Shown: positions 1-27,127 of the stretch, one piece after another
Layout of the letters: every line of letters begins with the position of its first letter
How positions within the stretch are numbered: the stretch's first letter is position 1
Origin: Burkholderiales bacterium
Lineage (GTDB): Bacteria > Pseudomonadota > Gammaproteobacteria > Burkholderiales > SG8-39
Assembly: GCA_036379875.1 (NCBI GenBank)
Contig: DASVFV010000098.1
Span: 19,828 to 83,827 of the forward strand
DNA: 64,000 nucleotides
Reading direction: 5' to 3'
The notes under the pieces: generated by a model
What the model saw: only the letters and a program-made list of their open reading frames with translations
Told to the model about the DNA's origin: nothing
The model's database searches: none
Made by a program: the position numbers and the translations under genes

Positions 1-324
1 CACGACGAGCTGAAGAAAAGCTCCGAATTCGACATCCCGTCCGCCAGGGTCACCGCGAAGGAGATGGACATGGCGATGCGCCTGGTCGAGGACATGGCGG
101 ACGACTGGAAGCCCGAGCGCTACAAGGACACGTTCCGCGACGACCTGATGAAGCGCATCGAGGAAAAGGTGAAGGCCGGGCAGACCGCGGAGATCACCGC
201 GCCGGCGAAAGAGGGCAAGGCGGAGAAAGGCGAGGTCATCGACCTGATGTCCGCGCTCAAGAAGAGCCTGGAGAGAAAACCGGCCAGGCGCGCCACCGCC
301 CACAGGAAACGCAGGGCAGCCTGA
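1..324 (+). CDS. ku: Ku (NHEJ DNA end-binding protein), C-terminal part; 5' end lies outside the window
   Basis: Frame-1 ORF is open from the window edge. The C-terminal sequence is Ku-like (EMDMAMRLVEDMADDWKPERYKDTFRDDLMKRIEEK) and ends in a basic tail. Confidence 0.75.
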   Translation, partial: HDELKKSSEFDIPSARVTAKEMDMAMRLVEDMADDWKPERYKDTFRDDLMKRIEEKVKAGQTAEITAPAKEGKAEKGEVIDLMSALKKSLERKPARRATAHRKRRAA

Positions 325-1412
325 TGCCGAAAAGACAGATCCGCTACGCCGTGGTCGGACTCGGGCACATCGCCCAGGTGGCGGTGCTTCCGGCGTTCGG
401 CAACGCGCGGCGCAACTCGAAGCTCGCCGCGCTGGTGTCCGGGGACGAATTAAAAAGAACAAGCCTTGCCGAAAAATACGGCGTGGAGAAAGCCTATTCG
501 TACGAGCAGTACGACGAATGCCTGAAGACGGTGGACGCGGTGTACATCGCGCTGCCGAATCACCTGCACTGCGAGTACGCGGTGCGTGCGGCAAAGGCCG
601 GCGTGCATGTGCTGGTCGAGAAACCGATGGCGGTCACCGAGGAGGAGTGCGAGGAGATGATCCGCGCCGCGCGCGAGGCGCGCGTCAAGCTGATGGTGGC
701 CTACCGGCTGCATTTCGAGCGCGCCAACCTGGAAGCGGGCGAGATCGCGCGCTCCGGGCGCATCGGCGAGCCGCGCCTGTTCAACTCCACATTCTGCACC
801 CCGGTGGTGCCGGGCAACATCCGCGTGCGCCGCGACACCGGCGGCGGCGTGCTGTATGACATCGGCATCTACTGCATCAACGCGGCGCGCGCACTGTTCC
901 GCGACGAGCCGATCGAGGTGCGCGCGCTGAGCGTCGGCACGCTCGACGAGGTGGAGGAAGCGGTGAGCGCGGTGCTGCGCTTCCCGAACGAGCGCCTGGC
1001 GAGCTTCACCGCCTCGTTCGGCGCGGCCAAGGTCTCGGAGTACCGCCTGGCCGGCACCAAGGGCGACCTCGCGCTCGAGCCCGCCTACGACTACGCGCGC
1101 CCGCTCAAGCACCGCCTCACGCTCGACGGCGAGATGCGCGAGCGGCGCTTCGCCAAGCGCGACCAGTTCGCGCCCGAGCTGCTCTACTTCTCCGACTGCG
1201 TGCTGCAGAACGGCACGCCCGAGCCCGGCGGCGACGAAGGCCTCGCCGACGTGCGCGTGATCCGCGCGCTGTACCGCTCGGCCGAGCGCGGCGCGCCGGT
1301 GGCGCTCGAGCCGTTCGCCAAGCGCGCGCGCCCGAGCCTCGAGCAGGAGATCCGGCGCCCGCCGGTCGAAAAACCCGACGTGATCCACGCGGCTGCCCCG
1401 TCGGGCAGCTGA
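324..1412 (+). CDS. Gfo/Idh/MocA family oxidoreductase
   Basis: 362-aa ORF with an N-terminal Rossmann motif (YAVVGLGHIA) and the EKP motif (VLVEKPMA). The start overlaps the ku stop (TGATG). Confidence 0.9.
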   Translation: MPKRQIRYAVVGLGHIAQVAVLPAFGNARRNSKLAALVSGDELKRTSLAEKYGVEKAYSYEQYDECLKTVDAVYIALPNHLHCEYAVRAAKAGVHVLVEKPMAVTEEECEEMIRAAREARVKLMVAYRLHFERANLEAGEIARSGRIGEPRLFNSTFCTPVVPGNIRVRRDTGGGVLYDIGIYCINAARALFRDEPIEVRALSVGTLDEVEEAVSAVLRFPNERLASFTASFGAAKVSEYRLAGTKGDLALEPAYDYARPLKHRLTLDGEMRERRFAKRDQFAPELLYFSDCVLQNGTPEPGGDEGLADVRVIRALYRSAERGAPVALEPFAKRARPSLEQEIRRPPVEKPDVIHAAAPSGS

Positions 1413-1437
1413 ATTTCTTACTTAACCAAAGGAGCCA

Positions 1438-1863
1438 GTGATGATGAAGACCCTGATCGCAGTCGCAGTGAGCGCCGCGTTCGCCTTCCCGGCGTTCGCG
1501 CAAACCAAGGCCGACACCAAGAACGACCCGAACCTGCCGAGCGCGCAGGAACGCGCCGAGAACCGCGAGAAGCTGAACGAGAAGCTGCCGACCGCGGAAG
1601 AACGCGCGCAGAACCGCGAGAAGGTGAGCAGGGGCGCGAGCAACGCGTCGCTCACCGCCAAGGTCAAGACCGCGCTCGCCTCCGACGCCGGCATGAAGAC
1701 CATGACCAACATCGATGTCGACTCCAACGAAGGCGTGGTCACGCTGAAGGGCAAAGTCGACTCGTCCGACGCGAAAAAGAAGGCCGAGGCGATCGCCAAG
1801 AAGGTGGACGGCGTGAAGCGCGTCAAGAACGAGCTCAAGGTCGAAGCGAAGAAGAGCTCGTAG
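1438..1863 (+). CDS. Secreted BON domain protein (OsmY-like)
   Basis: Signal peptide (…AFAFPAFA/QT) and a C-terminal BON-like segment (VKTALASDAGMKTMTNIDVDSNEGVVTLKGKV). An AAAGGAG Shine-Dalgarno sequence lies upstream. Confidence 0.85.
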   Translation: MMMKTLIAVAVSAAFAFPAFAQTKADTKNDPNLPSAQERAENREKLNEKLPTAEERAQNREKVSRGASNASLTAKVKTALASDAGMKTMTNIDVDSNEGVVTLKGKVDSSDAKKKAEAIAKKVDGVKRVKNELKVEAKKSS

Positions 1864-2094
1864 ATGGCGCAGCCCGGAACGCCGCTCCTCTCGGTCCTGC
1901 AGACCCGGGACGGCGTCTGGAGCGTCAACGAGCGCGGGCCCTCCCGCGTGGCGATCGCGTACTTCCCCACGAAATGGGGCGCGATGCGCCACGCGGTGCG
2001 CACCGCGCGGGCGAAGCCGCGCTGCCGCGTCGCGATCGTCGAGCGCGGGGGCGCGGTGCAGCTCGCTCATGACTACCAGCAGGAGGCAACATGA
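1864..2094 (+). CDS. Small hypothetical protein (DUF2188-like by eye)
   Basis: 76-aa ORF that starts directly after the BON stop (TAG-ATG). Its stop overlaps the next start (ATGA). The W-x-V…F-x-TK…A pattern resembles DUF2188. Confidence 0.5.
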   Translation: MAQPGTPLLSVLQTRDGVWSVNERGPSRVAIAYFPTKWGAMRHAVRTARAKPRCRVAIVERGGAVQLAHDYQQEAT

Positions 2095-2600
2095 AAACCA
2101 GGACCTTCGCACTGATCGCCGGCATCGCCTACCTGGGCGCCGGGCTGCTCGGCCTGATCCCGGCCGCGCTCATGCCGCCGCCGGCGGATGCGCCGCCGAC
2201 CAGCTTCACTCTGCTGTACGGCTACCTGCTCGGGCTCTTTCCCGTCAACGTGCTGCACAGCGCGGTGCACCTCGCGATCGGCTTCTGGGGTATCGCGGCC
2301 AGCCGCGATGCCACCGGCGCCAAGGTGTACGGCCGCTCGCTCGCCATCCTGTACGGCGTGCTCGCGGTGATGGGCCTCATCCCCGGCCTCAACAACGTGT
2401 TCGGCTTCATTCCGCTGCACGGCCACGACGTGTGGCTGCACGCGGGCACCGCGGCGATCGCCGCTTACTTCGGCTGGCGTACGGAGGTGGACGTGGAACG
2501 CAGGCACATGGCCGAGCGCCGGCAGCGCATGATGCCGGTCGCGCGCGAGCGCCGGCTCGGGCTCGCCGACCGCCGTCAGATGGCTTACACCGGCGCCTGA
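2091..2600 (+). CDS. DUF4383-type membrane protein, copy 1
   Basis: Four hydrophobic segments and the conserved NVLHSAVHLAIG and HGHDVWLHAG motifs. The C-terminal tail is rich in ERR/DRR units. Confidence 0.8.
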   Translation: MKTRTFALIAGIAYLGAGLLGLIPAALMPPPADAPPTSFTLLYGYLLGLFPVNVLHSAVHLAIGFWGIAASRDATGAKVYGRSLAILYGVLAVMGLIPGLNNVFGFIPLHGHDVWLHAGTAAIAAYFGWRTEVDVERRHMAERRQRMMPVARERRLGLADRRQMAYTGA

Positions 2601-2710
2601 GACGTAAAAGAAGGTTAAAGAGCCGAGCCTCCGGGTTGCAGGACAGCGGCGGACGGCGCGCACGAGCCGCAGACTGAAAAAAAGATAAACTCGCGCTGGG
2701 AGGGAGAAGA

Positions 2711-3244
2711 ATGAGAAGCGCGACGTTTGCGTTGTTCGCGGGTATCGCCTACTTGAGCGCCGGCATCATCGGCCTCATCCCGGCGGAGCTTTCGCCGCCG
2801 CCGGCCGATGCGCCGCTGGTGCGCTACAACGTGCTGTACGGCCACATGCTCGGGATATTCCCGGTCAACGTGCTGCACAGCATCGTCCACCTGGCGATCG
2901 GCGCCTGGGGGATCTCGGCGTGGCGCGCCGACCACCACTTCGGCCGCGGCATGGGCAGCCCGAAGCTGTTCGCGCGCTCGATCGCCATCTTCTACGCCGC
3001 GCTCGCCCTGCTCGGCCTGATCCCGGCCACCAACACGCTGTTCGGCCTGATCCCGATCTACGGCCACGACGTGTGGCTGCACGCCGGTACCGCGCTCGTC
3101 GCGAGCTATTTCGGCTGGCGCACCGAGAACGAGGTCGAGCGGCGCGGCGGCGAGTCGACCGACCGGCGCCAGCAGGCGGTGCCGGTCGAGGTCGAGCGCC
3201 GCCTCGGCCACGCCGACCGCCGCGTGCCGGGCAGCGAAGTCTAG
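2711..3244 (+). CDS. DUF4383-type membrane protein, copy 2 (tandem paralog)
   Basis: Aligns by eye with copy 1 over the full length, including the Arg-rich tail. Confidence 0.8.
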   Translation: MRSATFALFAGIAYLSAGIIGLIPAELSPPPADAPLVRYNVLYGHMLGIFPVNVLHSIVHLAIGAWGISAWRADHHFGRGMGSPKLFARSIAIFYAALALLGLIPATNTLFGLIPIYGHDVWLHAGTALVASYFGWRTENEVERRGGESTDRRQQAVPVEVERRLGHADRRVPGSEV

Positions 3245-3258
3245 GGAAGCTCTGAAAA

Positions 3259-3333
3259 GTCGTCCCCGCGAAGGCGGGGACCCCGTCTTTTCTTTTTAGA
3301 TTAAATGGGGTTCCCGCCTGCGCAGGAACGACG
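3259..3333. repeat. Composite palindromic REP/MITE-like element, copy 1
   Basis: GTCGTCCCCGCGAAGGCGGGGACCCC, an AT-rich spacer, then GGGGTTCCCGCCTGCGCAGGAACGAC (inverted half). It lies between convergent genes. The same architecture occurs at 14337 and 45191. Confidence 0.8.
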
Positions 3334-3356
3334 GTTTTGCGCGTGTGCCGGGATTG

Positions 3357-4442
3357 TTAGCGGCTCGCGAGCGCCGCCCCTTCGGTGAGGGATTTCAACT
3401 TCGCCCATGCGACTTGAGGATGGGAGCGCCCGCCGAAGCCGCAGTCGCACCCCGCGATCACGTTCTCGCTGCCGAGGCGCCGCACGAAGCGCCGGATGCG
3501 CTGCGCCACGAGCTCCGGGTGCTCGACCACGTCGGTGGAATGCGTCACCACGCCGGGAACGAGGATCTTGCCCTCCGGCAGCTTCACGCTGTCCCACACC
3601 GCGTACTCGTGCTCGTGGCGCGCATTCGCGCCCTCGATGAGGTAGGCCTGCGCCTTCACGCGCAGCAGCAGGTCCACCACGTCCTTCAGCTCGATGTCGA
3701 ACGCGTGCGGGCCATGCCAGCTTCCCCAGCACAGGTGGTAGCGCACGCGCTCTTCCGGCACGTTGCGCAACGCATGGTTCAGCGCTTCGATGCGCAGCAG
3801 TGACCTTTTCTTGAAAGCGGAAAGCCCCACGGGGATTCCGATGCGGTCCCACAGCGCGACCAGCCACGCGTCGTCGATCTGCAGCACCACGCCTGAAGCG
3901 GCGATCGCCTCGTACTCCACGCGCATCGCCTCGGCGATGGCGCAGACGAATTCCTCCTCGCTCCTGTAATACTCGTTGCGCCGGTAGACCTCCAGGCTCG
4001 CCGGCGCGGTGGAGGTCAGGAACGCGTCCTCCGCAGGCACGCGAGCCTTCAGCGCCTCGATCTCCTTCTGCAATGAATCGAGGCCGGTATAGGTGATGGG
4101 CGCGGTGCAGACCCAGATTGGGCGCACGCGCTTGATCTGCTCGCCCGGCGCGTAGAACAGCGTGCCCTTTTCGGCCGCGTACTTGTAGAACTCGGCGAAG
4201 GCTTCGCGGTCCCGGCCCTGCGCGATGAGCGGCACCGCCCCCGGGGCGGGCGGGCGCGGCTCGAAGCCGCCGAAGCGGCTCTCCATGTACGAGAGCCAGT
4301 CGCCGCCCTTCGTGTATTCGCCCTCGTTCACCAGGTCCAGGCCGAGCTCGCGCTGCTTGCGCACCACCCATTCGACGTCCTGCCCCTCGTACGGGAGGCT
4401 TCCCACGTGCGTGGTGAGGATCTTTTTCGTCGAGCGTTTCAT
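3357..4442 (-). CDS. Cobalamin-independent methionine synthase family protein (MetE C-terminal-like, Meth_synt_2)
   Basis: Start corrected to MKRSTKKILTTHVGSLP (ATG at 4442). A C-terminal CDCGFG motif is present. The first 27 codons of the track ORF are an extension. Confidence 0.85.
   Translation of the reverse strand: MKRSTKKILTTHVGSLPYEGQDVEWVVRKQRELGLDLVNEGEYTKGGDWLSYMESRFGGFEPRPPAPGAVPLIAQGRDREAFAEFYKYAAEKGTLFYAPGEQIKRVRPIWVCTAPITYTGLDSLQKEIEALKARVPAEDAFLTSTAPASLEVYRRNEYYRSEEEFVCAIAEAMRVEYEAIAASGVVLQIDDAWLVALWDRIGIPVGLSAFKKRSLLRIEALNHALRNVPEERVRYHLCWGSWHGPHAFDIELKDVVDLLLRVKAQAYLIEGANARHEHEYAVWDSVKLPEGKILVPGVVTHSTDVVEHPELVAQRIRRFVRRLGSENVIAGCDCGFGGRSHPQVAWAKLKSLTEGAALASR

Positions 4443-15431: not shown

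Positions 15432-15435
<4 letters not shown>
14806..15435 (-). CDS. MlaC/Ttg2D family periplasmic phospholipid-binding protein (orphan)
   Basis: Signal peptide and the hallmark WKIYDIVVEGVSLVLTYRSEF motif. The start overlaps the response-regulator stop (ATGA). Confidence 0.85.
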
Positions 15436-16814
<1,379 letters not shown>

Positions 16815-16863
16815 CACCCTTACCTCTTCTCTCCTTGAGAATGCCGATTGTTGCGATGCATCT

Positions 16864-18327
16864 TTACGCGGCGTCGGCCAGCGCACGCGCCGAACGGCGC
16901 GGCAGCGTTACACGAAAATGACCGCCGGCGTCGCCGCCCACCACCGCGATCTGGCCGCCGTGGGCCTCGACAAGTTCCCGCGCGATCGCGAGGCCCAGGC
17001 CGCTGCCCTTCACGCGTACCGCGCTGCCCGCGGTGCGCCCGCGGAAGAACAGGTTGAAGATCGAGTCGCGCTCCTCGGCCGGCACGCCCGGCCCGGTGTC
17101 GTGCACGTCGATGATCGCCTCGCCGGCCACCGCTTTCGCGGAAACCGTCACGCTGCCGCCCGCGGGCGTGAACTTCACCGCGTTCGAGATCAGGTTGTCG
17201 ACGATGGAGCGCAGCTTCTCCGGGTCCGCTTCCACGGTGGCGGACTCGGCGTCGACCAGCAGCTTGAGCCCCTTCGCCTGCGCGGCGAGCTCGTGCGCCC
17301 GGGTGGCCTCCTCGACCAGGTGCTCGAGGGAAACGGGCTGGACCTGCAGCGACGCCGCGGCGTGCAGCGCGCGCTGGTAGTCGAGCAGCTCCTCGATCAG
17401 GCGCTGCAGCTTGATGCTGTTGTCCTTCATGATCGCCACCACGCTCCGCTGCGGCGGCGCGAGCGGGCCGGCCACCTGGTCGTTCAGGAGCTCGGCGCCC
17501 TCGCGCAGCGCGGTGAGCGGCGTCTTCAGCTCGTGCGAGACGTGGCGCAGGAAGCGGTTTTTCTGCGTCTCGAACTCCTCGAGCCGCCGGCGCAGCCAGT
17601 CGAGCCTTCTCCCCAGGTAGCGCAAGTCCTCCGGCCCGCGCACCGCGATCGGGCGCGAGAAGTCGGCGCCGCCGAGCTGGCGGATCGCCGCGTCGATCTC
17701 GCCGATCGGGCGCGCGATGTAGCGGGTCAGCGCGAGGGCAATCGCGAGCGCCACCGCGGTGGAGAAGATGAGCAGCAGGATGATGTTGCGCTGGACCTGC
17801 TCGGCGCTGTGGCGCAGGCGCTCCACCTCGCGGTCCACCACGCGGTTGTTGATCGCGAGCACGTCGCGCGCGCTGTCGATCAGGAGATCGAGCCGCGCGC
17901 CGATGTCCTTGGGATTCAGGCGCTCGGTGCCCGAGGTGAGCGTCTCGTAGAGCGCCTGCTCGTGCTGCACCGTGACGCTGAGCGCGTCGGCCTGCGCGTT
18001 GTCGAGCGGCAGCTGCGCGATCTCGTCGGCGAGCTGCTTGAAGCCGCGGTGCACGCGCGCGTAGTCGAGCGCGAGCTCCGCATCCTTGAGCAGCGCCATC
18101 TGCTGCGCGACGCGCTCGATCGCCGCGATGCGATCGACCAGCGAGCGGCTCGCGCGCGCCGCCTGCGAGGCGTTGAACACCGCGGTGCGGCTCTTGCCCG
18201 CGAGGCGCTCGGTGTTCCACGCCGAATAGGCCAGCGCGCCGACCAGCGGCATGATCACGAGCGTGAAGCCGCCGAGCAACAGCGCGAGGAACGAGCGCGG
18301 GTAAAAAAGCATGCGTGATGTTTCCAC
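16864..18327 (-). CDS. Sensor histidine kinase (2 TM, periplasmic helical domain, HAMP, HisKA, HATPase; GlrK/QseE-like architecture)
   Basis: H-box HVSHELKTPL and G-box GSGLGLAIA. An alternative ATG start exists at 18312. Confidence 0.9.
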   Translation of the reverse strand: METSRMLFYPRSFLALLLGGFTLVIMPLVGALAYSAWNTERLAGKSRTAVFNASQAARASRSLVDRIAAIERVAQQMALLKDAELALDYARVHRGFKQLADEIAQLPLDNAQADALSVTVQHEQALYETLTSGTERLNPKDIGARLDLLIDSARDVLAINNRVVDREVERLRHSAEQVQRNIILLLIFSTAVALAIALALTRYIARPIGEIDAAIRQLGGADFSRPIAVRGPEDLRYLGRRLDWLRRRLEEFETQKNRFLRHVSHELKTPLTALREGAELLNDQVAGPLAPPQRSVVAIMKDNSIKLQRLIEELLDYQRALHAAASLQVQPVSLEHLVEEATRAHELAAQAKGLKLLVDAESATVEADPEKLRSIVDNLISNAVKFTPAGGSVTVSAKAVAGEAIIDVHDTGPGVPAEERDSIFNLFFRGRTAGSAVRVKGSGLGLAIARELVEAHGGQIAVVGGDAGGHFRVTLPRRSARALADAA

Positions 18328-19676: not shown

Positions 19677-20396
19677 TCAGGCTGGACTCAGCACGGTGCC
19701 GACCACGCGCGCGCGGCAGAAGCCGAGGAAATCGCGCAGCCGCTCGAGCGCGCGGCTGCGGGTCGAGAAGCGCGCCACCACCAGCGCGCCGCCGGCGTAG
19801 GCCGCGGAGAGCTGCAGATCGGGGCCGAACGCGGCCGCCGGCGTATTCACCAGCACCGCGCGGTAGCGCTTGCCCGCCGCGGCGAGCAGCTCGAGCATGC
19901 GCGGGCGGCTCAGCAGCTCGAGCGGGTCGGCGCCGGCGCGGCCGGCCACCAGGACGGTGAGGTTGTCCTCGCAGTGCGCGAGGTGCGTGGCGCGGCCTTC
20001 GAGGAAGTCGGCGAGGCCGGCACGGTTGCGCAGGCCGAAAGCGCGGTGCAGCGAGGGGTCGCGGAAGTCCGCGTCGATGAGCAGCGTCGGCTCGCCGCGC
20101 CGGGCGAGCGCGCGCGCCAGCTCGGCCGCGACCTGCGTGCCGTTGTCGCCGGTCTCCGCGCTCACCACCGCCAGCACCGGGCGCCCGCAGTCGAACCAGT
20201 GCGCGCTCAGCTGGCGCGCGAGGTCGGCTGCCGCGAGCGGGCGCGCCGCGACGATCGGCATGCCGAGCGTGGCGATGAGATCCCTTTCGGAGCGCACGCG
20301 CTCGGCGCGCCGGGAAACGAGCGACAGGCAGACCAGGCCGACAACGACCGTGGCGGTCGCGAGGGCAAGTCCCGCGGCGGTGTGCGGCTCGAGCAT
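19677..20396 (-). CDS. BY-kinase (CpsD/EpsG)-like P-loop protein with degenerate Walker A and B motifs
   Basis: The Walker A' motif LLIDADFRDP is intact. Walker A reads SAETGDNGTQ (no Lys) and Walker B reads VLVNTP (Asn for Asp). There is no C-terminal Tyr cluster. An alternative start exists at ATG 20261. Confidence 0.7.
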   Translation of the reverse strand: MLEPHTAAGLALATATVVVGLVCLSLVSRRAERVRSERDLIATLGMPIVAARPLAAADLARQLSAHWFDCGRPVLAVVSAETGDNGTQVAAELARALARRGEPTLLIDADFRDPSLHRAFGLRNRAGLADFLEGRATHLAHCEDNLTVLVAGRAGADPLELLSRPRMLELLAAAGKRYRAVLVNTPAAAFGPDLQLSAAYAGGALVVARFSTRSRALERLRDFLGFCRARVVGTVLSPA

Positions 20397-20410: not shown

Positions 20411-20426
20411 AGCAATGCGCGTGCCA
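20411..20426 (-). promoter_or_regulatory. Sigma-54 (-24/-12) promoter
   Basis: The minus strand reads TGGCACGCGCATTGCT, a perfect TGGCAC-N5-TTGC. It is intergenic and lies directly upstream of the 20396 start, in an operon that encodes a sigma-54 activator. Confidence 0.7.
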
Positions 20427-20581
20427 CTTCGCGATCGCTTTGCAATCAACGACTTTGTACACGCGCGGCGACGCGCCCTGTCGGCCCCGCACGACAGTCC
20501 GTTTGTAGTTGTGGCGCGGCAGACAGGTCCAAAAAGCGCAGCCTAGAATCGCCGCGACCTAACAAAAGGAAGAAACGCTGC

Positions 20582-21844
20582 ATGAGGAATCGCTGGATGC
20601 GCGCGTTTGGTGTTCTGCTCCTCGTCCCGGCTACGGCTTTTGCGTTCCAGGCCGTCGACGAGATTCCCTATCCGTCGCTCGGCGGCTTCCCCGAGGCGTA
20701 TGCGCCCGCGCCCGTGTATCCGACGCGGCTGTGGGCGGAAGCCGGCACGATGTACGACAGCAATCCGTTCCGGCTCAACGACTCGGTCAATGCGCAGAAC
20801 GCGCTCGGGCACAGCGGCAAGGACGACGGCATCGTGCGCCTGGGCGCCGGCGCGGGGCTCACGCAGCGCGTGTTCGGCCGGCAGAGCGTCAACCTCGAGG
20901 CCACCGGCCATTACTACGACTACCTGCGCTTCAACCAGCTCGACCACTTCGCCTACACCCTGCTCGGCGAATGGCTCTACGAGGTCACCAACGACCTGAG
21001 CGGGACGATCGGCTACGGGCGCGACCGCGGCCTCGCCGATCCGGGCGAGGCGCAGCAGGTGAACCGCGACATGGTCACTACCGACCGCGGCTTCGCCAGC
21101 GCGAACTACCGGCTCGGCCCCAACGTGCAGCTGCGTGGCGCCGTGGACGCGCTGCGCGGCAAGCGCGAGGGCGACCGGCCCGACGCCGAGACCGACTCGC
21201 GCACCTGGCGCGTGGGCGCCGATTACGTGAGCACGCTCGCCAACACCATCGGCGCGGAATACCGCGAGACGCGCGGCAGCGCGCCGGTCAACCCGCTTGC
21301 CGACCCGACCGGCCAGTTCACCGACAACGAATACGAGGACCGCGAGATCGCCGCCGTGGCGGCGTACCGCGCGGGCGAGCAGCTGCGCTTCCTCGGCCGC
21401 TACGGCGAGACGCGCCGCCGGTACACGCAGCTCCCGGTCGACGAGTTCAAGGGCCCGACCTGGCGCGTGCGTGCCGATTGGCTGCCCACCGCCAAGGTCG
21501 GCCTGCGCTTCGACACCTTCCGCAGCGTCGAAACCGTGCTCGAGATCGACGCCACGCACGTGGTGGCGCGCGGCGTGGCGTTCGGCCCGCGCTGGGCGCC
21601 GCGCGAGAAGCTCGTGTTCTACGCCATGTTCGTGAACGAGCGGCGCGAATACCAGTCGACCGCCGACCCGACGCTCCCGGCGCGCGACGAAACCCTGCGC
21701 ATCTGGCGCCTCGCCGGCGGCTGGGAGCCGCAGCGCCACATCAAGATCGGCGGCGGCGTGGACTGGGGTGAGCGCACCTCCAACGTCCTCGGGCGCGACT
21801 ACGACTACCTGCAGGTCTCCCTCAACGCCCGCTACGACTGGTAG
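20582..21844 (+). CDS. Outer-membrane beta-barrel protein, EpsL-like / exopolysaccharide-locus associated
   Basis: Signal peptide (…ATAFA/FQ), alternating beta-strand pattern, and a C-terminal aromatic end (…SLNARYDW). Confidence 0.7.
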   Translation: MRNRWMRAFGVLLLVPATAFAFQAVDEIPYPSLGGFPEAYAPAPVYPTRLWAEAGTMYDSNPFRLNDSVNAQNALGHSGKDDGIVRLGAGAGLTQRVFGRQSVNLEATGHYYDYLRFNQLDHFAYTLLGEWLYEVTNDLSGTIGYGRDRGLADPGEAQQVNRDMVTTDRGFASANYRLGPNVQLRGAVDALRGKREGDRPDAETDSRTWRVGADYVSTLANTIGAEYRETRGSAPVNPLADPTGQFTDNEYEDREIAAVAAYRAGEQLRFLGRYGETRRRYTQLPVDEFKGPTWRVRADWLPTAKVGLRFDTFRSVETVLEIDATHVVARGVAFGPRWAPREKLVFYAMFVNERREYQSTADPTLPARDETLRIWRLAGGWEPQRHIKIGGGVDWGERTSNVLGRDYDYLQVSLNARYDW

Positions 21845-21851
21845 TCAGCAC

Positions 21852-21929
21852 AACCTAATTCGGGGCCAGGGCCACAACTCGCTTTTGCGTACGCGAAAAC
21901 GAGTCGTGGCCCTGGCCCCGAATTAGGTT
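21852..21929. terminator. 78-bp near-perfect palindrome (30-bp arms) between convergent genes; bidirectional terminator or REP-like element
   Basis: AACCTAATTCGGGGCCAGGGCCACAACTCG, an 18-nt centre, then CGAGTCGTGGCCCTGGCCCCGAATTAGGTT, with one arm mismatch. The right arm contains the manC stop codon. Confidence 0.7.
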
Positions 21930-23305
21930 CGCGCCTCGCGGCCGTAGTTGTCTTCGTAGCGCACGATGTCGTCCTCGCCGAGGTAGCCGCCGGACTGGAC
22001 CTCGATGATCTCGAGCGGCAGCTTGCCGGGGTTCTCGAGGCGATGGCGGGTGCCGGGCGGGATGTAGGTGGATTCGTTCTCGGTGAGGAGGAAGGTCTCG
22101 TCGCCGCGCGTCACGCGCGCGGTGCCGCGCACCACGATCCAGTGCTCGGCGCGGTGGTAGTGCATCTGCAGCGAAAGCGCGGCGCCGGGATCGACGACGA
22201 TGCGCTTCACCTGGAAGCGCTCGCCGTTCTCGATGCCGTCGTAGCTGCCCCACGGGCGCAGCACCTTGCGGTGGGCCAGGCACTCGGCGCGGCCGGCGGC
22301 TTTCAGCGTCGCCACCATCGCGCCGATCGCCTGCGCCTTGTCCTTGCGCGCCACCATCACCGCGTCGGGCGTCTCGACCACCACCACGTCGTCCAGCCCG
22401 ACGCACGCGAGCAGGCGATGCTGCGCGATGAGCAGCGCGTTGCGCGTGTCGGCGGCGTGCACGTCGCCGTGGATCACGTTGCCCTGCGCGTCCTTGGTCT
22501 CGATGTCCCAGAGCGCGTCCCACGCGCCGACGTCGGACCAGCCGGCCTCGAGGCGCACTACCATCGCGTCGGCGACGCGCTCCATCACCGCGTAGTCGAT
22601 CGAGTCGCACGGGCACTCGCCGAACGCCGCCGGGTCCACGCGCAGGAAGGTGCCGTCGCGCCTGCCCTGCCGGAACGCGCGCTCGCAGGCCTTCAAGATC
22701 TCGGGCCGGAAACTGCCGATCGCGTCGATCCAGACCGACGCCCGCACCGCGAAGATGCCGGCGTTCCAGAGATAGTCGCCCGAGGCGAGGTACTCGGCCG
22801 CCTTCGCCGCATCCGGTTTCTCGACGAAGCTTTCGATGAATTCGTTTCTGGAACGGATGTATCCGTACCCCGTCTCCGGGGCCAGGGGCGGCACGCCGAA
22901 GGCGACAATGCGCCCCTTCGCCGCGAGCGCGACGCCGCGCTCCACCGCGCGCTTGAAGGCGTCGCGCTGCGCGATGAAATGGTCGGAGGGCATCGCGACC
23001 AGCACCGGGTCGTCGGCGGTCACGGCCTGGATCGCGGCGAGCGTGAGCGCGGGCGCGGTGCCGCGCCCCTTCGACTCGAGGATGATGGAGCGCGGCCGCG
23101 CGCCGGCGCGGCGCAGCTGCTCCTGCACGAGGAAGCGGTGCGTCTCGTTGCACACCACGATCGGGTCGCCGGTGCAGCGCAGCGCGGTCTCCTGCAGCAG
23201 CGTGCGCTCGCCGTTCACCGCGTGCAGCGGCTTCGGATGATGCTCGCGCGACAGCGGCCACAGGCGCGTGCCGGACCCTCCGCACAGGATTACCGGTTGC
23301 ATCAT
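21923..23305 (-). CDS. manC: Mannose-1-phosphate guanylyltransferase / mannose-6-phosphate isomerase (bifunctional, type II PMI)
   Basis: N-terminus ILCGGSGTRLWPLSR and a C-terminal cupin (QMHYHRAEHWIVVRGTA). 460 aa. Confidence 0.9.
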   Translation of the reverse strand: MMQPVILCGGSGTRLWPLSREHHPKPLHAVNGERTLLQETALRCTGDPIVVCNETHRFLVQEQLRRAGARPRSIILESKGRGTAPALTLAAIQAVTADDPVLVAMPSDHFIAQRDAFKRAVERGVALAAKGRIVAFGVPPLAPETGYGYIRSRNEFIESFVEKPDAAKAAEYLASGDYLWNAGIFAVRASVWIDAIGSFRPEILKACERAFRQGRRDGTFLRVDPAAFGECPCDSIDYAVMERVADAMVVRLEAGWSDVGAWDALWDIETKDAQGNVIHGDVHAADTRNALLIAQHRLLACVGLDDVVVVETPDAVMVARKDKAQAIGAMVATLKAAGRAECLAHRKVLRPWGSYDGIENGERFQVKRIVVDPGAALSLQMHYHRAEHWIVVRGTARVTRGDETFLLTENESTYIPPGTRHRLENPGKLPLEIIEVQSGGYLGEDDIVRYEDNYGREART

Positions 23306-23315
23306 TTCCCTGGGA

Positions 23316-23828
23316 CTAGACGCGCGCTGCGCGCCGCCGCTCGCCGTAGAGTCTCTGATAGCTCCAGTCTGCGAGGAAGTGCGCCTGGTAGTCTGCCTTC
23401 GCGCACTCCCCCATCTGGCGCATCTTCTGCGGAAACGCCTCGGCCCAGGCGAGCCGCCGCGCGAGGTCCCGCGCCGAGCCCGGCTCGAAGAGCAGGCCGT
23501 TGCGCCCCGGCTCGATCAGCTCGGCGAGCCGCCCGACGCGGCTCGCGATCACCGGCAGGCCGTTAGCGAACGCCTCGACCAGCGGGCGCGGCTGCAATTC
23601 GTAAGAGAGGCTGGGCAGCACGACGTAGCTCGCGCCGCGCATGCGCGCCTGCACCTCCGCGGGGCCGACGCGTCCGAGCAGCCGGATGTTCGGGTGGCCG
23701 GCGAGGCGCCACTCCTCGGGGCCGGATCCCACCACGGCAATCTGCGCGCCGGGGAAAAGATCGAGCGCCTCCACCAGCGTGGCGATGCCCGACTCGGCCT
23801 GCAGGCGGCCGAGGAACAGCCCGCTCAT
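23316..23828 (-). CDS. GT4-type glycosyltransferase, C-terminal domain only (split enzyme or gene remnant)
   Basis: 170 aa containing an E-x7-E motif (ELQPRPLVE) and the Glycos_transf_1 core. No N-terminal GT-B domain is encoded upstream in any frame. Confidence 0.6.
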   Translation of the reverse strand: MSGLFLGRLQAESGIATLVEALDLFPGAQIAVVGSGPEEWRLAGHPNIRLLGRVGPAEVQARMRGASYVVLPSLSYELQPRPLVEAFANGLPVIASRVGRLAELIEPGRNGLLFEPGSARDLARRLAWAEAFPQKMRQMGECAKADYQAHFLADWSYQRLYGERRRAARV

Positions 23829-24079
23829 TCCGGCGTCCAGCGGCGCTTGCGGTACTCGATCTTCGGCGTCTTGCGCGGCGCTGCGCTGCGCGTCTCGCCG
23901 GGCTCGGGGAGCACGGCGACGCGCACTTCCTTGCGCGCCGCCGGACGCTCCGCACGGCGCTCCTGGTGCTGGCGCTCGTGCGGGTGCGGGTGTTGCTGTT
24001 GTTCCTGCTCGCGGGCGCCGCGGCCGCGCAGGCGGCCCGAGGCGTAGAGATAGCCCGCTGCAGTTGCTGCTGCCGACAT
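23825..24079 (-). CDS. Hypothetical 84-aa highly charged/disordered protein
   Basis: Starts 1 nt after the kinase-like stop. Its stop overlaps the GT start (ATGA). No domain recognised. Confidence 0.4.
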   Translation of the reverse strand: MSAAATAAGYLYASGRLRGRGAREQEQQQHPHPHERQHQERRAERPAARKEVRVAVLPEPGETRSAAPRKTPKIEYRKRRWTPE

Positions 24080-24080
24080 T

Positions 24081-24824
24081 TCAGGTCTCCTTCATCCAGG
24101 TCGATCGTTTCTCGAGAAGCTTCCAGTACGCGGCCACCACCGGATCGGCGCGATCCGCCTTGCGATGCAGGATCACGCCGAGCAGGTAGACCAGCGTGAG
24201 CGCACCGATCACGCGCGGGCGCCACGACCACTCGGGGTAGGCGGCGAGCGCGAACTCGTGCGCGCGGCTCATCGCGCGGCACAGGAGCGGCACGGTCTTC
24301 AGGCGCCGCTGGATCATCAGGTAGTGCAGCACGTCGTCGAGCGGGCTTGCGTCGGTGTGCGCCTCGCCCCAGTCGAACACGAAGAGCTGCGAGCCGAAGG
24401 TGCGGATGTTCCAGGGCGCGAAGTCGCCCTGCGACAGGACGTACGGCCCGGTCCAGTAGAGGAGCGCCTTCTCGACGTCGTAATACGCCTCCTGCAGCAA
24501 CGGCTCGTTGGGCAGCGCGCGCTGGATCCACTGGCACTTCGCGGCGTGCTCGAGCTCGGTGGAGCGGAAGCGCGCCCTGCCGAGCGCCTGCAGGAAGCGC
24601 GCGTGCCCCATCGTGAAAGCGCGGGTTTCACCGGTGCCTGGCGGGATGCTCAGCACGAGGTAGGGCGAGCCCGCGTCGTCGGTGCCCTGCTCGAGCAGGC
24701 GCGGCAGCTGGCCTTCGAGCGTGCGCTCGCGCCCGAGCTCGCGCAGCCACACCGCCTCGCGCGCGAGGCGCTTCGCCGTCTCGGCGTCGGTGGCGGTCTT
24801 GACCAGGCGTAGCTCGAGCGCCAT
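24081..24824 (-). CDS. Phosphotransferase (APH/choline-kinase-like) family protein
   Basis: Catalytic-loop-like QGDFAPWNIR and a VFDWGEA (DxD/DFG-equivalent) motif. It directly abuts the EF-hand gene's stop. Confidence 0.65.
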   Translation of the reverse strand: MALELRLVKTATDAETAKRLAREAVWLRELGRERTLEGQLPRLLEQGTDDAGSPYLVLSIPPGTGETRAFTMGHARFLQALGRARFRSTELEHAAKCQWIQRALPNEPLLQEAYYDVEKALLYWTGPYVLSQGDFAPWNIRTFGSQLFVFDWGEAHTDASPLDDVLHYLMIQRRLKTVPLLCRAMSRAHEFALAAYPEWSWRPRVIGALTLVYLLGVILHRKADRADPVVAAYWKLLEKRSTWMKET

Positions 24825-25169
24825 CTAGCGGCGTACCTGCAAGATCTGCAGCCCTTGCGCGAATTCGTCGCGGTCGAGCTTGCCGTCGCCGTTGCGGTCG
24901 GCGCGCTCGAAGTTGGCCGACAGGCCCGGCACCATGCCGCACTCGGACTTGTCGAGGAAGCCGTCCTTGTTGCGGTCGGCCTTGTCGAAGTCGTTGGCGT
25001 GCTCGGGCGCAGGCGCGGGCTGGCTCGCGCCGCCCGCGGCGGATTGGGTCTGGGCGTCGTCCTTGTGCACCTGGGCGGTGACGATCGGCAGCGCCGCGAT
25101 CAACGCCACGAAGCACGCGCCCAGGAACAGCAGGAAAACGCTGCGCTGCTGGCGGAGTCTCGGATTCAT
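24825..25169 (-). CDS. Secreted EF-hand calcium-binding protein (two EF loops)
   Basis: Start corrected to MNPRLRQQRS (ATG at 25169). It has a signal/anchor helix and the loops DRNKDGFLDKSE and DRNGDGKLDRDE. Confidence 0.75.
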   Translation of the reverse strand: MNPRLRQQRSVFLLFLGACFVALIAALPIVTAQVHKDDAQTQSAAGGASQPAPAPEHANDFDKADRNKDGFLDKSECGMVPGLSANFERADRNGDGKLDRDEFAQGLQILQVRR

Positions 25170-25211
25170 GACAGGGCTCTTGGAGTTGGCACTTGTGTTC
25201 GGGCGGCTCCT

Positions 25212-25227
25212 TGCAAGCCGCGTGCCA
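25212..25227 (-). promoter_or_regulatory. Sigma-54 (-24/-12) promoter
   Basis: The minus strand reads TGGCACGCGGCTTGCA, a perfect TGGCAC-N5-TTGCA. It is intergenic; its 3' end lies about 42 nt upstream of the EF-hand gene ATG. Confidence 0.7.
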
Positions 25228-25297
25228 CTCGCCCTGCTTCCTGCTGCAACAAGCACTTAAGCCCGCGCGCAAGACGCGTGCTTCGTCGGGCAATGCA

Positions 25298-25316
25298 AAC
25301 CGCGCCGCGCGCGGTT
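25298..25316 (-). terminator. Possible terminator hairpin after the LigJ-like gene
   Basis: AACCGCGC-GCG-GCGCGGTT followed by TGCATTG on the minus strand. The U-tract is weak. Confidence 0.35.
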
Positions 25317-25377
25317 CTAGGAAGCGCTTGTTTTCAGTACTTTTTCGTCGTCTCGAAACGCCGACGTCGACGAGTCA

Positions 25378-26397
25378 CTAAGCGTGTCGTTTCTTCAGCC
25401 GCGCGTCGAGGCGCGGGTAGACCCTGCGCGCGTTTCCCTCGAAGATTTTCTGCTTCTCGGAGGAGCTCAGGTTCAACCGGTCGATGTAGCGCTTCGTGTC
25501 GTCGTAGTTCTGACCGGTTTCCGGATCGACGCCCTTCACCGCGCCGAGCATCTCGGAGGCGAACAAGATGTTGTCGACCGGAATCACCTTGGCCATGCAG
25601 TCGATGCCCGCCTGGTGGTAGACGCAGGTATCGAAGAACACGTTCCCCAGCAGGTGATCCTTGAGGAGCGGCTTCTTCATCTCCTGCGCCAGGCCTCTAT
25701 ACCTTCCCCAGTGGTACGGCACCGCGCCGCCGCCGTGCGGGATCACGAAGCGCAGCGCCGGGAAATCCTTGAACAGGTCGCCCTGGATGAGCTGCATGAA
25801 CGCGGTGGTGTCGCCGTTGATGTAATGCGCGCCGGTGTAGTGGAACACCGGGTTGCACGACGAGGTGACGTGGATCATCGCCGTCATCTCGTGCTCGCAG
25901 AGCTTCTCGTACAGCGGATACCACCACTTGTCGGTGAGCGGCGGGTCGGTCCAGTAGCCGCCCGCCGGGTCCGGGTTCAGGTTCACGCCGATAAAGCCGA
26001 GCTTCGCCAGGCGCTCGAGCTCGGCGATGCAGTTCTTCGGCGGCACGCCCGGATGCTGCGGGAGCTGGCCGACCGGCGCGAAGTTGTCCGGCAGGAGCGT
26101 GCAGATGCGGTGGATGAGATCGTTCGACATGCGCGACCACTCGATCCCGGTCGCCTCGGTGCCGACGTGGTGCGCCATGCCGGCGGCGCGCGGCGAGAAA
26201 ATCGTCAGGTCGGACCCGCGCTCCTTCTGCAGCTTCAACTGCGGCTCGACGCTCTTCTTTAGCTCGTCGTCCGTTATGCCGAGCTCGTTGGTCGCCGGCC
26301 TGCGCATCGGGTCGGCCAGGCCGGCGAGCTGCTTGTCGCGGAATGCGAGCAGCTTCTGCGGCTCGGTGGTGTAGTGACCGTGGATGTCGATGACCAT
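25378..26397 (-). CDS. Amidohydrolase_2 family hydratase, 4-oxalomesaconate hydratase (LigJ/PmdE)-like
   Basis: Start corrected to MVIDIHGHYTTEP (ATG at 26397). Strongly family-typical blocks are present (SDLTIFSPRA, NLNPDP…PPLTDKWWYPLYEKL, IPHGGGAVPYHWGR, FDTCVYHQ). The upstream 194 codons of the track ORF are an artefact. Confidence 0.85.
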   Translation of the reverse strand: MVIDIHGHYTTEPQKLLAFRDKQLAGLADPMRRPATNELGITDDELKKSVEPQLKLQKERGSDLTIFSPRAAGMAHHVGTEATGIEWSRMSNDLIHRICTLLPDNFAPVGQLPQHPGVPPKNCIAELERLAKLGFIGVNLNPDPAGGYWTDPPLTDKWWYPLYEKLCEHEMTAMIHVTSSCNPVFHYTGAHYINGDTTAFMQLIQGDLFKDFPALRFVIPHGGGAVPYHWGRYRGLAQEMKKPLLKDHLLGNVFFDTCVYHQAGIDCMAKVIPVDNILFASEMLGAVKGVDPETGQNYDDTKRYIDRLNLSSSEKQKIFEGNARRVYPRLDARLKKRHA

Positions 26398-26404
26398 GGG
26401 GACG

Positions 26405-27127
26405 ATGCTAGCATTGAAAAAAATGCTCGCCGACCTCCAGTCCATGAAGCAGGCCGGGCGCAAGATCGTCGGCGTGGTGGCCTGGGATTTCCAGGTCGCG
26501 CAGATCGCCGACCGCGCCGGCGTCGACCTCGTCTCCGTCGGCGACAGCGTCGGCGTCAACCTGTGGGGCCAGGCGCCCGACGAGATCACCATCGAGGAGA
26601 TGCTCACCGTGTGCCGCGCGGTGCGCCGCGGCGTGAAGCGCGCGGTGGTGAGCGCCGACCTGCCCGCGCACGAGCAGAACGTCGACGCGGCGCTGCGCCT
26701 CAAGGCGTGCGGCGCGGACATGGTAAAGCTGCTCGGCTCGGCCGACCTGGTGCGCAGCGTGGTGCGCGAGGGCGTGCCGGTGTTCGCCGAGTTCCACGGC
26801 GGCAAGGACGAGCCCGCGATGCTGGTCGACCACGCGAAGCGCCTCGAGGACGCGGGCGCCGCGCTGCTCGACTTCCGCCAGTCCGGGCCGGTGGCCGGGG
26901 CGGCAGTGGCGCGCGCGGTGAAGATCCCGGTGATCGGCGGCCTCGGCGGCGGACCGTGGCTCGACGGGCGCATGCGCATGGCGACCGCGGCGATCGGCTA
27001 CGCGTTCTCCCATCTGGATCAGCCCGTGGAAACCTACGCCAACGTGGCCCGCATCACGCTCGAGGCGTTGAGCGAGTACGCGGGCGACGTGCGCGCCGGC
27101 AAGCAGATCAAGGGGCAGCGTGGCTAG
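26405..27127 (+). CDS. PanB-like (3-methyl-2-oxobutanoate hydroxymethyltransferase / ICL-PEPM superfamily) protein
   Basis: KQAGRKIVGVVAWDF…VGDSVGVNLWG resembles the PanB N-terminus. Start chosen at ATG 26405 (GGGGA SD); earlier ATGs at 26384-26396 are possible. Confidence 0.65.
   Translation: MLALKKMLADLQSMKQAGRKIVGVVAWDFQVAQIADRAGVDLVSVGDSVGVNLWGQAPDEITIEEMLTVCRAVRRGVKRAVVSADLPAHEQNVDAALRLKACGADMVKLLGSADLVRSVVREGVPVFAEFHGGKDEPAMLVDHAKRLEDAGAALLDFRQSGPVAGAAVARAVKIPVIGGLGGGPWLDGRMRMATAAIGYAFSHLDQPVETYANVARITLEALSEYAGDVRAGKQIKGQRG

Follow-up and report, generated by a model that had tools for sequence, protein, structure and literature searches.

A conserved sigma-54 promoter ahead of a manC operon in uncultured soil Burkholderiales is a predicted target of a GlrR-type activator

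Introduction

The two-component system GlrK/GlrR (QseE/QseF) is understood mainly through two enterobacterial small RNAs. At glmY and glmZ, GlrR recognizes TGTCN10GACA ahead of the sigma-54 promoter and depends on flanking integration host factor (IHF) sites (PMC3045617). A second system, PrsK/PrsR, acts with RpoN to control PEP-CTERM and exopolysaccharide (floc) genes in Zoogloea and Aquincola (PMC9850573). Here, we describe a locus from a Burkholderiales bacterium that shares features with both systems. The locus lies in a 64,000-nucleotide stretch, which we call the window (positions 19,828 to 83,827 of contig DASVFV010000098.1, assembly GCA_036379875.1). The assembly is a metagenome-assembled genome (MAG) with 90% completeness and 2% contamination. 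Our subject is a sigma-54 promoter, P2, on the minus strand of this window, together with the five genes that follow it and the two-component system encoded nearby.

A sequence-only reading of the window had proposed that P2 and a second perfect sigma-54 site, P1, form one regulon under the sigma-54 activator encoded behind P1, linking a secreted Ca-binding protein and GDP-mannose supply to a two-component signal. We compared the locus with its relatives and with described systems. The results make it probable that P2 is functional, is activated by a GlrR-type regulator, and transcribes as one mRNA the genes for an EF-hand protein, a kinase-fold protein, an 84-amino-acid (aa) protein (orf84), the C-terminal domain of a family 4 glycosyltransferase (GT4), and ManC, as part of an envelope regulon.

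Results

P2 (TGGCACGCGGCTTGCA, 25212 to 25227, minus strand) reads as a perfect match to TGGCAC-N5-TTGCW, with the GG and GC doublets of the -24/-12 element exactly 10 nt apart, the sigma-54 spacing. Exactly 42 nt (25211 to 25170) separate it from the ATG at 25169, so both the site and the approximate distance given by the sequence-only reading are correct. We predict that the transcript starts near 25201, with a 5' untranslated region of about 32 nt. The window contains exactly two matches to TGGCAC-N5-TTGCW, P2 and P1 (20426 to 20411), against a chance expectation of 0.05; none of 100 shuffles reached two. There are only four matches in the whole 3.68-Mb assembly (68.5% G+C). A genome search also located rpoN (contig C98, 7431 to 7901), plus fragments of a second copy.

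Using the kinase-fold protein as the query, we collected 44 related loci, nearly all from MAGs of uncultured soil Burkholderiales. About 38 of them maintain the gene arrangement of the window. In 33 of the 36 loci having upstream sequence, the first gene is preceded by a GG-N10-GC element that fits TGG[CT]ACG-N4-CTTGC[AT], and these 33 retain the GG/GC pair and most of the flanking consensus bases. The background for the relaxed motif is 0.13 per kb per strand, which corresponds to at most 5.6% per 450-nt window for each locus. In six loci that lack the EF-hand gene, the element is found about 50 nt ahead of the kinase-fold gene. Thus, the element tracks the head of the operon and not one particular gene. 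Two other candidate features of this region were given up. The GCG that follows TGGCAC in both P1 and P2 had looked like a regulon signature; relatives retain only the first G of the GCG. A conserved hairpin in the 5' leader downstream of P2 was dropped after 19 single-sequence leader folds gave z scores of about 0.

We asked whether the P2 motif could be a chance match or a decayed promoter, with a sigma-70 promoter or read-through from upstream supplying the transcript of the operon. The locus does resemble a reduced remnant of a larger glycan operon, and the gene upstream is co-oriented with the operon. However, the -24/-12 element is fixed in position over about 38 species while the flanking bases vary, no sigma-70-like site was found on the strand of P2 between 20300 and 25500, and the four core proteins of the operon are all under purifying selection. 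We give this explanation hardly any chance. Judged by sequence comparison, P2 is a real, conserved sigma-54 promoter.

We then anchored 34 upstream regions on the promoter and found four further conserved blocks. The most distal holds a candidate activator site, cGTC-N10-GACg (25350 to 25365, minus strand), with an intact core inside a strongly conserved block; 31 of the 34 loci have GTC-N10-GAC between -136 and -149 relative to the TGG. A second, proximal palindrome with an intact GTC-N10-GAC core follows exactly 66 nt downstream of the distal site (-70 to -83 from the TGG) in 22 of 34 relatives. The corresponding position in the window (25285 to 25300, minus strand) reads GTT-N10-GAC, a degenerate site with one core mismatch and a 65-nt offset. 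Between the two palindromes is an IHF-like box, AAACAAGCGCTTC (25321 to 25333, minus strand), with two mismatches to WATCARNNNNTTR; the IHF consensus used for these comparisons is that of PMC3045617. In the profile anchored on the distal site, an AAaCAA-N4-tT box between the palindromes is conserved. The last block, TAAG-N2-CTTG (25250 to 25259, minus strand), is also conserved in the profile, at -32 to -23 from the TGG, and holds the YAA-N4-TTG core of an inverted IHF-type site. The palindrome blocks and the two IHF-like boxes are the conserved columns of the information profile. GTC-N10-GAC has a density of only 0.13 per kb genome-wide, and in silico the candidate sites fall within the range of about 70 to 200 nt upstream that is expected for sigma-54 activator sites.

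The activator gene of the neighboring operon (15432 to 16817, minus strand) encodes a response regulator of the GlrR/QseF type. This protein and E. coli GlrR share 59% identity in an alignment of 445 aa that spans the whole length. The recognition helix reads AARLAGRNRTEFYRLL, compared with AARMAGRNRTEFYKLL in E. coli, and the core GRNRTEFY is identical (AGRNRTEFY-LL). Next to it is the gene for a GlrK-like sensor histidine kinase (16864 to 18327, minus strand) with HAMP, HisKA, and HATPase domains in Pfam; this protein shares 35% identity with E. coli GlrK across 457 aa (E = 1e-74). The kinase stop codon (16864) and the regulator ATG (16817) are 46 nt apart, and no gene lies between them in the position of QseG. 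The EpsL-like gene also prompted us to consider a PrsK/PrsR-type regulator, associated with the PEP-CTERM box, and we rejected it: the GlrR score is higher, while the PrsR score is 376 bits against a cut-off of 502.6, a cut-off passed by none of the activators of this genome. PehR of Ralstonia was tried as a betaproteobacterial guide; its source paper aligns PehR with GlrR and gives no binding site.

As the sequence-only reading stated, this is the only sigma-54 activator in the window. However, that fact is weak evidence, because the genome encodes eight proteins with strong Sigma54_activat matches, three of them GlrR-like. Two further GlrR-like genes (C121:15381-16697 and C196:2431-5734) are about 92% identical to the local copy and have an identical helix-turn-helix. 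The local regulator cannot be singled out in this genome because the C121 and C196 copies share its DNA-binding helix. P2 could thus be a true sigma-54 promoter served by another activator, either one of these copies, answering to other kinases, or one of four unassigned activators. The kinase paired with the C196 copy shares only 67% identity with the kinase in the window and may sense something else. Against this, relatives have only the copy adjacent to the cluster, yet they retain the P2 module. The five activators that are not GlrR-like (NtrC and the four unassigned proteins) reach at most 339 bits on the GlrR model. The extra copies may also be co-binned strain material, given the 2% contamination and the contig breaks inside these genes. 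Whether they are true paralogues or co-binned material, cross-activation is possible. We regard control of P2 by another activator as unlikely.

Both additional copies are followed by a similar gene of about 257 aa with a CSSC motif and by a second shared gene. On C196, a 180-aa open reading frame (ORF) with a lipoprotein-like N terminus lies between kinase and regulator, the place of QseG in E. coli; its first 50 aa have no match in Pfam.

The relatives present a simpler picture. A single full-length GlrR-like gene was found in 6 of the 12 other genomes of the genus that we searched, and two (G011 and G012) contain fragments of two GlrR-like genes. In four relative loci that we fetched, the GlrR-like gene belongs to a kinase-regulator-MlaC unit; the two longer contigs among these four carry manC too, and one has the kinase-fold gene. 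The GlrR-like gene of the relatives thus appears to be single copy and adjacent to the cluster.

P1 (TGGCACGCGCATTGCT, 20411 to 20426, minus strand) heads the operon that encodes the activator. Located 69 nt upstream is TGTCGTGCGGGGCCGACA (20479 to 20496, minus strand), a perfect TGTC-N10-GACA of the same form as ABS2 of E. coli glmY, TGTCGCTTTCTGGCGACA. As a positive control, the same scan was run on the E. coli glmY region and recovered its three sites, including TGTCGCTTTCTGGCGACA and TGGCACAGTTACTGCA. P1 was detected in 14 related loci. Among 28 loci with a match to the EpsL-like gene that adjoins P1, 16 have a sigma-54 site and 12 have none. Seven loci retain TGTCG-N8-CGAC[AG] at -68 to -91, and most others have TGTC-N10-AACA. 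Upstream of P1, a yTTGATT box occupies the place equivalent to that of the TAAG-N2-CTTG box of P2.

We extended the search to the rest of the genome and scored 78 sigma-54-like sites. Only P1, P2, and a site at C56:4307 combine a top score with palindromes at typical distances. This third promoter (C56:4157-4686, plus strand) has TGTCGTCACGGCCCGACA at -150 and CGTCGGGCGCTCCCGACA at -83, followed by TGGCATGCGCTTTGCA, and so shares the grammar of P2. It heads a gene for a 108-aa membrane protein with a GGIGGTIYKVISPEGW motif and no assigned family, and the arrangement is conserved in at least seven other genomes of the genus. We next used a composite pattern consisting of a palindrome, 48 to 53 nt, a palindrome, 52 to 70 nt, and TGGYAY-N5-TTGC. 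It gave 36 matches in 29 of 61 genus genomes. Among 30 matches that were fetched, about 18 precede the EF-hand/kinase-fold operon and 8 precede the 108-aa membrane protein; of the remainder, 2 or 3 are found before another small membrane protein and one before a membrane protein of 320 aa. The composite pattern thus heads at least four gene classes. The proposal of one regulon is supported in silico by the GlrR-type sites at both promoters and by the adjacent GlrR homologue, but the predicted regulon is wider than the two operons originally named.

These matches bear on a different explanation of the palindromes upstream of P2, that they serve the upstream amidohydrolase gene as a terminator or processing signal, or that an unrelated repressor binds them, with the activator of P2 binding elsewhere. 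The distal candidate site begins 13 nt past the amidohydrolase stop codon, a short GC stem can be drawn there, and the flanking bases deviate from the TGTC/GACA consensus. However, the stem has no T-run and was not called as a terminator, the reversed-pattern control gave 0 matches in the 61 genomes, and the motif agrees with experimentally defined GlrR sites. Moreover, identically spaced pairs of these palindromes are found before the sigma-54 promoters of unrelated genes that have other upstream neighbors. Because the pattern also precedes these other gene classes, the distal block is not a by-product of the amidohydrolase gene. We consider this explanation quite improbable. The amidohydrolase ORF itself (533 aa, 25378 to 26979, minus strand) has an Amidohydro_2 domain from residue 197; its 5' end is probably over-extended, as most relatives align only from about residue 195.

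Several observations weigh against a P2 promoter that is activated by the GlrR-type regulator. The regulator scores 636 bits on the NCBIfam GlrR model, under the cut-off of 763, although GlrR is still its best NCBIfam match, and the C121 and C196 copies have the same DNA-binding helix. In the window, P2 has only one intact palindrome core, since the proximal site is mismatched; the palindrome is flanked by C/G instead of T/A; and the IHF-like boxes match the consensus weakly. The co-oriented amidohydrolase gene is 208 nt away with no obvious terminator, and some read-through from it into the operon is possible. Finally, one relative (G010) has the composite pattern, but no GlrR-like gene was detected in its genome; this exception may reflect MAG incompleteness. 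In the 12 genus genomes, the pattern is found in 6 of 8 with a GlrR-like gene (counting the C-terminal fragments of G012) and in 1 of 4 without. We have set this co-occurrence aside as evidence because the sample is too small and the MAGs are too incomplete. Taking these points into account, we still consider activation of P2 by a GlrR-type regulator to be the probable reading.

Three other sigma-54-like sites in the genome were observed along the way. A perfect site at C135:20246 (plus strand, TGGCACGAGGTTTGCA) is 7 nt before a type IV pilin-like gene whose product begins with MAKKKRAGMSKRSQSGLTLVELL; no GTC-N10-GAC is close to it, and we presume that a different activator serves it. At C88:27900 (plus strand), the sigma-54-like site GGGCATGCTGTTTGCA has TGTCGACAGACGTCGACA 136 nt upstream and precedes a membrane protein of 201 aa that looks PqiA-like by eye and has a zinc-ribbon-like segment at its N terminus. 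On C170, positions 1 to 3872 hold an exosortase/PEP-CTERM cluster with an EpsA regulator, a PEP-CTERM surface protein, a FemAB-family protein, and a partial exosortase A. Reading off the contig at its left edge is a sigma-54-like site of lesser strength (TGGCCCGGTAGTTGCT, minus strand, at 90), and TGTCGTGAACCAGCGACA lies 156 nt upstream of it.

The five genes downstream of P2 are tightly packed, and the junctions and gene identities given by the sequence-only reading were confirmed, the latter in Pfam and TIGR scans. The EF-hand stop codon and the kinase-fold ATG are separated by 0 nt and the kinase-fold stop codon and the orf84 ATG by 1 nt; orf84 and the half-glycosyltransferase gene overlap by 4 nt (ATGA), and 10 nt precede manC. 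No terminator-like site was found within the operon on the minus strand.

The first gene (24825 to 25169, minus strand) encodes a 114-aa EF-hand protein (Pfam EF-hand, E = 1e-10) with an N-terminal signal or anchor segment. Its two canonical 12-residue loops, DRNKDGFLDKSE and DRNGDGKLDRDE, both fit D-x-[DN]-x-[DN]-G-x-[ILV]-x-x-x-E, and calcium binding is predicted. The gene is missing from about one-third of the related loci and is an optional first gene.

The second gene (24081 to 24824, minus strand) encodes a 247-aa kinase-fold protein of the APH/FN3K/CcrZ type, which scores 22.5 bits on Pfam APH, just below the cut-off of 23.2. We called its QGDFAPWN and FDW motifs invariant; FDW is 90% conserved. 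Compared with the catalytic HxDxxxxN, QGDFAPWN has the D and the N, and Q replaces H. An AlphaFold2 model had a moderate pLDDT of 72, falling below 50 in the catalytic segment. The best Foldseek matches were APH(2'')-IIIa, CcrZ, and fructosamine-3-kinase (FN3K), with a probability of 1.0 and TM scores of only 0.43 to 0.51. A sequence profile of the protein gave no match in the PDB at E <= 1. The model suggests a weak resemblance to small-molecule or sugar kinases.

The third gene, orf84 (23825 to 24079, minus strand), is preceded by a Shine-Dalgarno sequence and encodes 84 aa with no Pfam family. The first 20 residues (MSAAATAAGYLYASGRLRGR) are identical across 38 loci, while 19 of the 20 third codon positions vary, including switches between TCG and AGT for Ser and between CGC and AGA for Arg. 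The C-terminal PKIEYRxRRW is also conserved, and the charged linker is variable. Homologues form 1,660 protein clusters from metagenomes, all unnamed and none with a Pfam family. From this pattern of substitution, orf84 is a genuine small protein under very strong selection.

The fourth gene (23316 to 23828, minus strand) encodes 170 aa that correspond to the C-terminal, donor-binding domain of a GT4 enzyme alone (Pfam Glycos_transf_1 over residues 4 to 144). The E-x7-E motif is intact (ELQPRPLVE), and the protein aligns with residues 196 to 371 of PimA-type mannosyltransferases. It does not have the N-terminal acceptor domain of a two-domain (GT-B) GT4 enzyme; the 255 nt upstream encode orf84 and not an N-domain. 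Two loci are without this GT half yet keep orf84. Thus, the conserved core is the kinase fold, orf84, and manC.

The last gene, manC (21923 to 23305, minus strand), encodes a bifunctional mannose-1-phosphate guanylyltransferase/mannose-6-phosphate isomerase, with a TIGR01479 score of 643.7 bits against an equivalog cut-off of 372.95 and a match spanning residues 2 to 456. We found no second manC in the 90%-complete assembly (tblastn, E <= 1e-3) and no GDP-mannose dehydratase above its cut-off in the genome.

Beyond manC, the order in the related loci is (EF-hand)-kinase fold-orf84-GT half-manC, a convergent EpsL-like gene, and then, divergently, (an EpsG-like gene and) the kinase-regulator unit. 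In the window, the convergent manC and EpsL-like genes are separated by a 78-bp palindrome (21852 to 21929) with 92% complementarity between its 39-nt arms; as RNA, it folds with an energy of -80.9 kcal/mol (z = -13.7). The sequence-only reading placed the end of the operon here. The palindrome is real and overlaps the manC stop codon, but it is not dedicated to this operon. At least 10 full-length copies with 84 to 93% identity are present on C181, C16, C116 (several), C144, C43, C172, C112, and C54, along with many half copies, and most relatives do not retain the palindrome at this site. We therefore rejected the idea of a terminator specific to this operon. The palindrome belongs to a dispersed, REP-like repeat family, and this mobile element probably acts as a two-way terminator or RNA stabilizer.

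The EpsL-like gene for an outer-membrane beta-barrel (20582 to 21844, plus strand) scores 199 bits on TIGR03014, under the cut-off of 275. It is bracketed by the two sigma-54 operons, as had been noted, and this position is conserved in relatives. A sigma-70-like promoter, CAGACA-18-TAGAAT, can be read ahead of it (20520 to 20549, plus strand). The -10 box is conserved in relatives, where it reads as GATTCTAG on the opposite strand, and the -35 box overlaps a conserved TGTCTG box adjoining the P1 activator site. Therefore, the activator might also influence the EpsL-like gene. No Rfam family was found in the 64-kb window.

Discussion

Our data suggest a circuit in which the GlrK-like kinase (16864 to 18327) would phosphorylate the GlrR-like activator (15432 to 16817). 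The activator would bind GTC-N10-GAC upstream of P2, at the distal site (25365 to 25350) and at the proximal site, which is degenerate here. An IHF-type bend would bring it to the sigma-54 polymerase at TGGCAC-N5-TTGCA, and the promoter would open. The same activator would drive its own operon from P1, through the perfect TGTC-N10-GACA at -69, giving positive feedback, and would also act at other places in the genome, on promoters that precede genes for small membrane proteins. The outcome would be that the only detectable GDP-mannose-forming enzyme of the cell is placed under two-component control. We observe the motifs, how they are conserved and spaced, the regulator's homology, and synteny. 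We infer from them the binding of the activator, the dependence on sigma-54, the co-transcription of the five genes, and the existence of a sensed signal, as well as the biochemical roles of the kinase-fold, orf84, and GT-half proteins.

If this circuit operates, the same type of system as GlrK/GlrR would work differently in widespread, uncultured soil Burkholderiales, with self-activation and direct control of protein-coding envelope genes. These genes include the only detectable route to GDP-mannose, which parallels the amino-sugar link in enterobacteria. The promoter grammar, two GTC-N10-GAC sites 66 nt apart with IHF-type boxes and TGGYACG-N4-TTGC, is usable for regulon prediction elsewhere. 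The locus also flags orf84 as a member of an abundant, unnamed family of small proteins.

The distant relatives of the operon are the glycan operons of Pelomicrobium sp. and others (L039 to L044). The kinase-fold protein (38 to 51% identical in L039 to L043), the GT4 C-domain (56 to 60%), and ManC are found there in the same order. These operons additionally encode a methyltransferase, a GT2 enzyme, a second GT4 enzyme, a beta-helix protein, a full two-domain GT4 enzyme, and a WecG/TagA transferase; in L039, L042, and L044, the full order is methyltransferase, GT2, kinase fold, GT4, beta-helix protein, complete GT4, WecG/TagA, and ManC. The homologue of the half-glycosyltransferase is a full 390-aa GT4 enzyme in the distant relatives, and the kinase-fold protein of L039, L042, and L044 has an N-terminal extension of about 130 aa. 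The pairing of methyltransferase and kinase in these three loci recalls, we presume, the chain-terminating enzymes of polymannose O-antigens. No sigma-54 site lies upstream in L039, L040, L042, or L044, and those of L041 and L043 are more than 1.1 kb ahead of the kinase-fold gene. Compared with these operons, the operon in the window has lost the extra genes and gained orf84. The operon in the window thus appears to be a cut-down version of the full glycan operon, with orf84 and sigma-54 control as gains.

It is tempting to go further and to view the kinase fold, orf84, the GT-B donor domain, and ManC not as a decaying remnant but as an undescribed, minimal module for mannose-dependent envelope modification or signaling. 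Within such a module, orf84 may replace the missing acceptor half of the glycosyltransferase or may serve as a substrate of the kinase or the transferase, and the GlrK/GlrR-type system would switch the module on alongside the sole GDP-mannose supply of the cell. We hold this to be decidedly doubtful.

We return to the probable reading, a GlrR-type activated P2, and to the described systems with which it can be compared. Like PrsK/PrsR, the locus places sigma-54 and a two-component activator over surface-polysaccharide-type genes, in the Burkholderiales/Rhodocyclales. The EpsL-like gene adjoins the regulator genes, and the genome has an exosortase/PEP-CTERM cluster. Unlike the PrsK/PrsR targets, the P2 operon has no PEP-CTERM protein or exosortase. 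By family cut-offs, this is not an XrtB/PEP-CTERM locus: EpsL (199 bits against 275) and PrsR (376 against 502.6) are below their cut-offs, and the exosortase, EpsA, and PEP-CTERM protein are on C170.

The locus also resembles GlrK/GlrR. The sites share the form (T)GTC(G)-N8/10-(C)GAC(A), a TGGCAC-N5-TTGC promoter is preceded by more than one of them, interspersed with IHF-type boxes, and both systems are tied to the supply of envelope sugar precursors, an amino sugar in enterobacteria and GDP-mannose here. There are also clear differences. The predicted targets here are protein-coding (the P2 operon, the regulator's own operon, and small membrane proteins) and are not the small RNAs GlmY and GlmZ, which had no Rfam match in the window; the rest of the genome was not scanned for them. 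Sigma-54 would also drive the operon of the two-component system itself, the kinase and regulator genes have no QseG lipoprotein gene between them, and an MlaC-like gene follows. The host is a betaproteobacterium and not a member of the Enterobacteriaceae. The proposed mechanism is the classical one of sigma-54, a GlrR-type activator, and IHF-type bending, while the target genes are new and belong to uncultured soil Burkholderiales.

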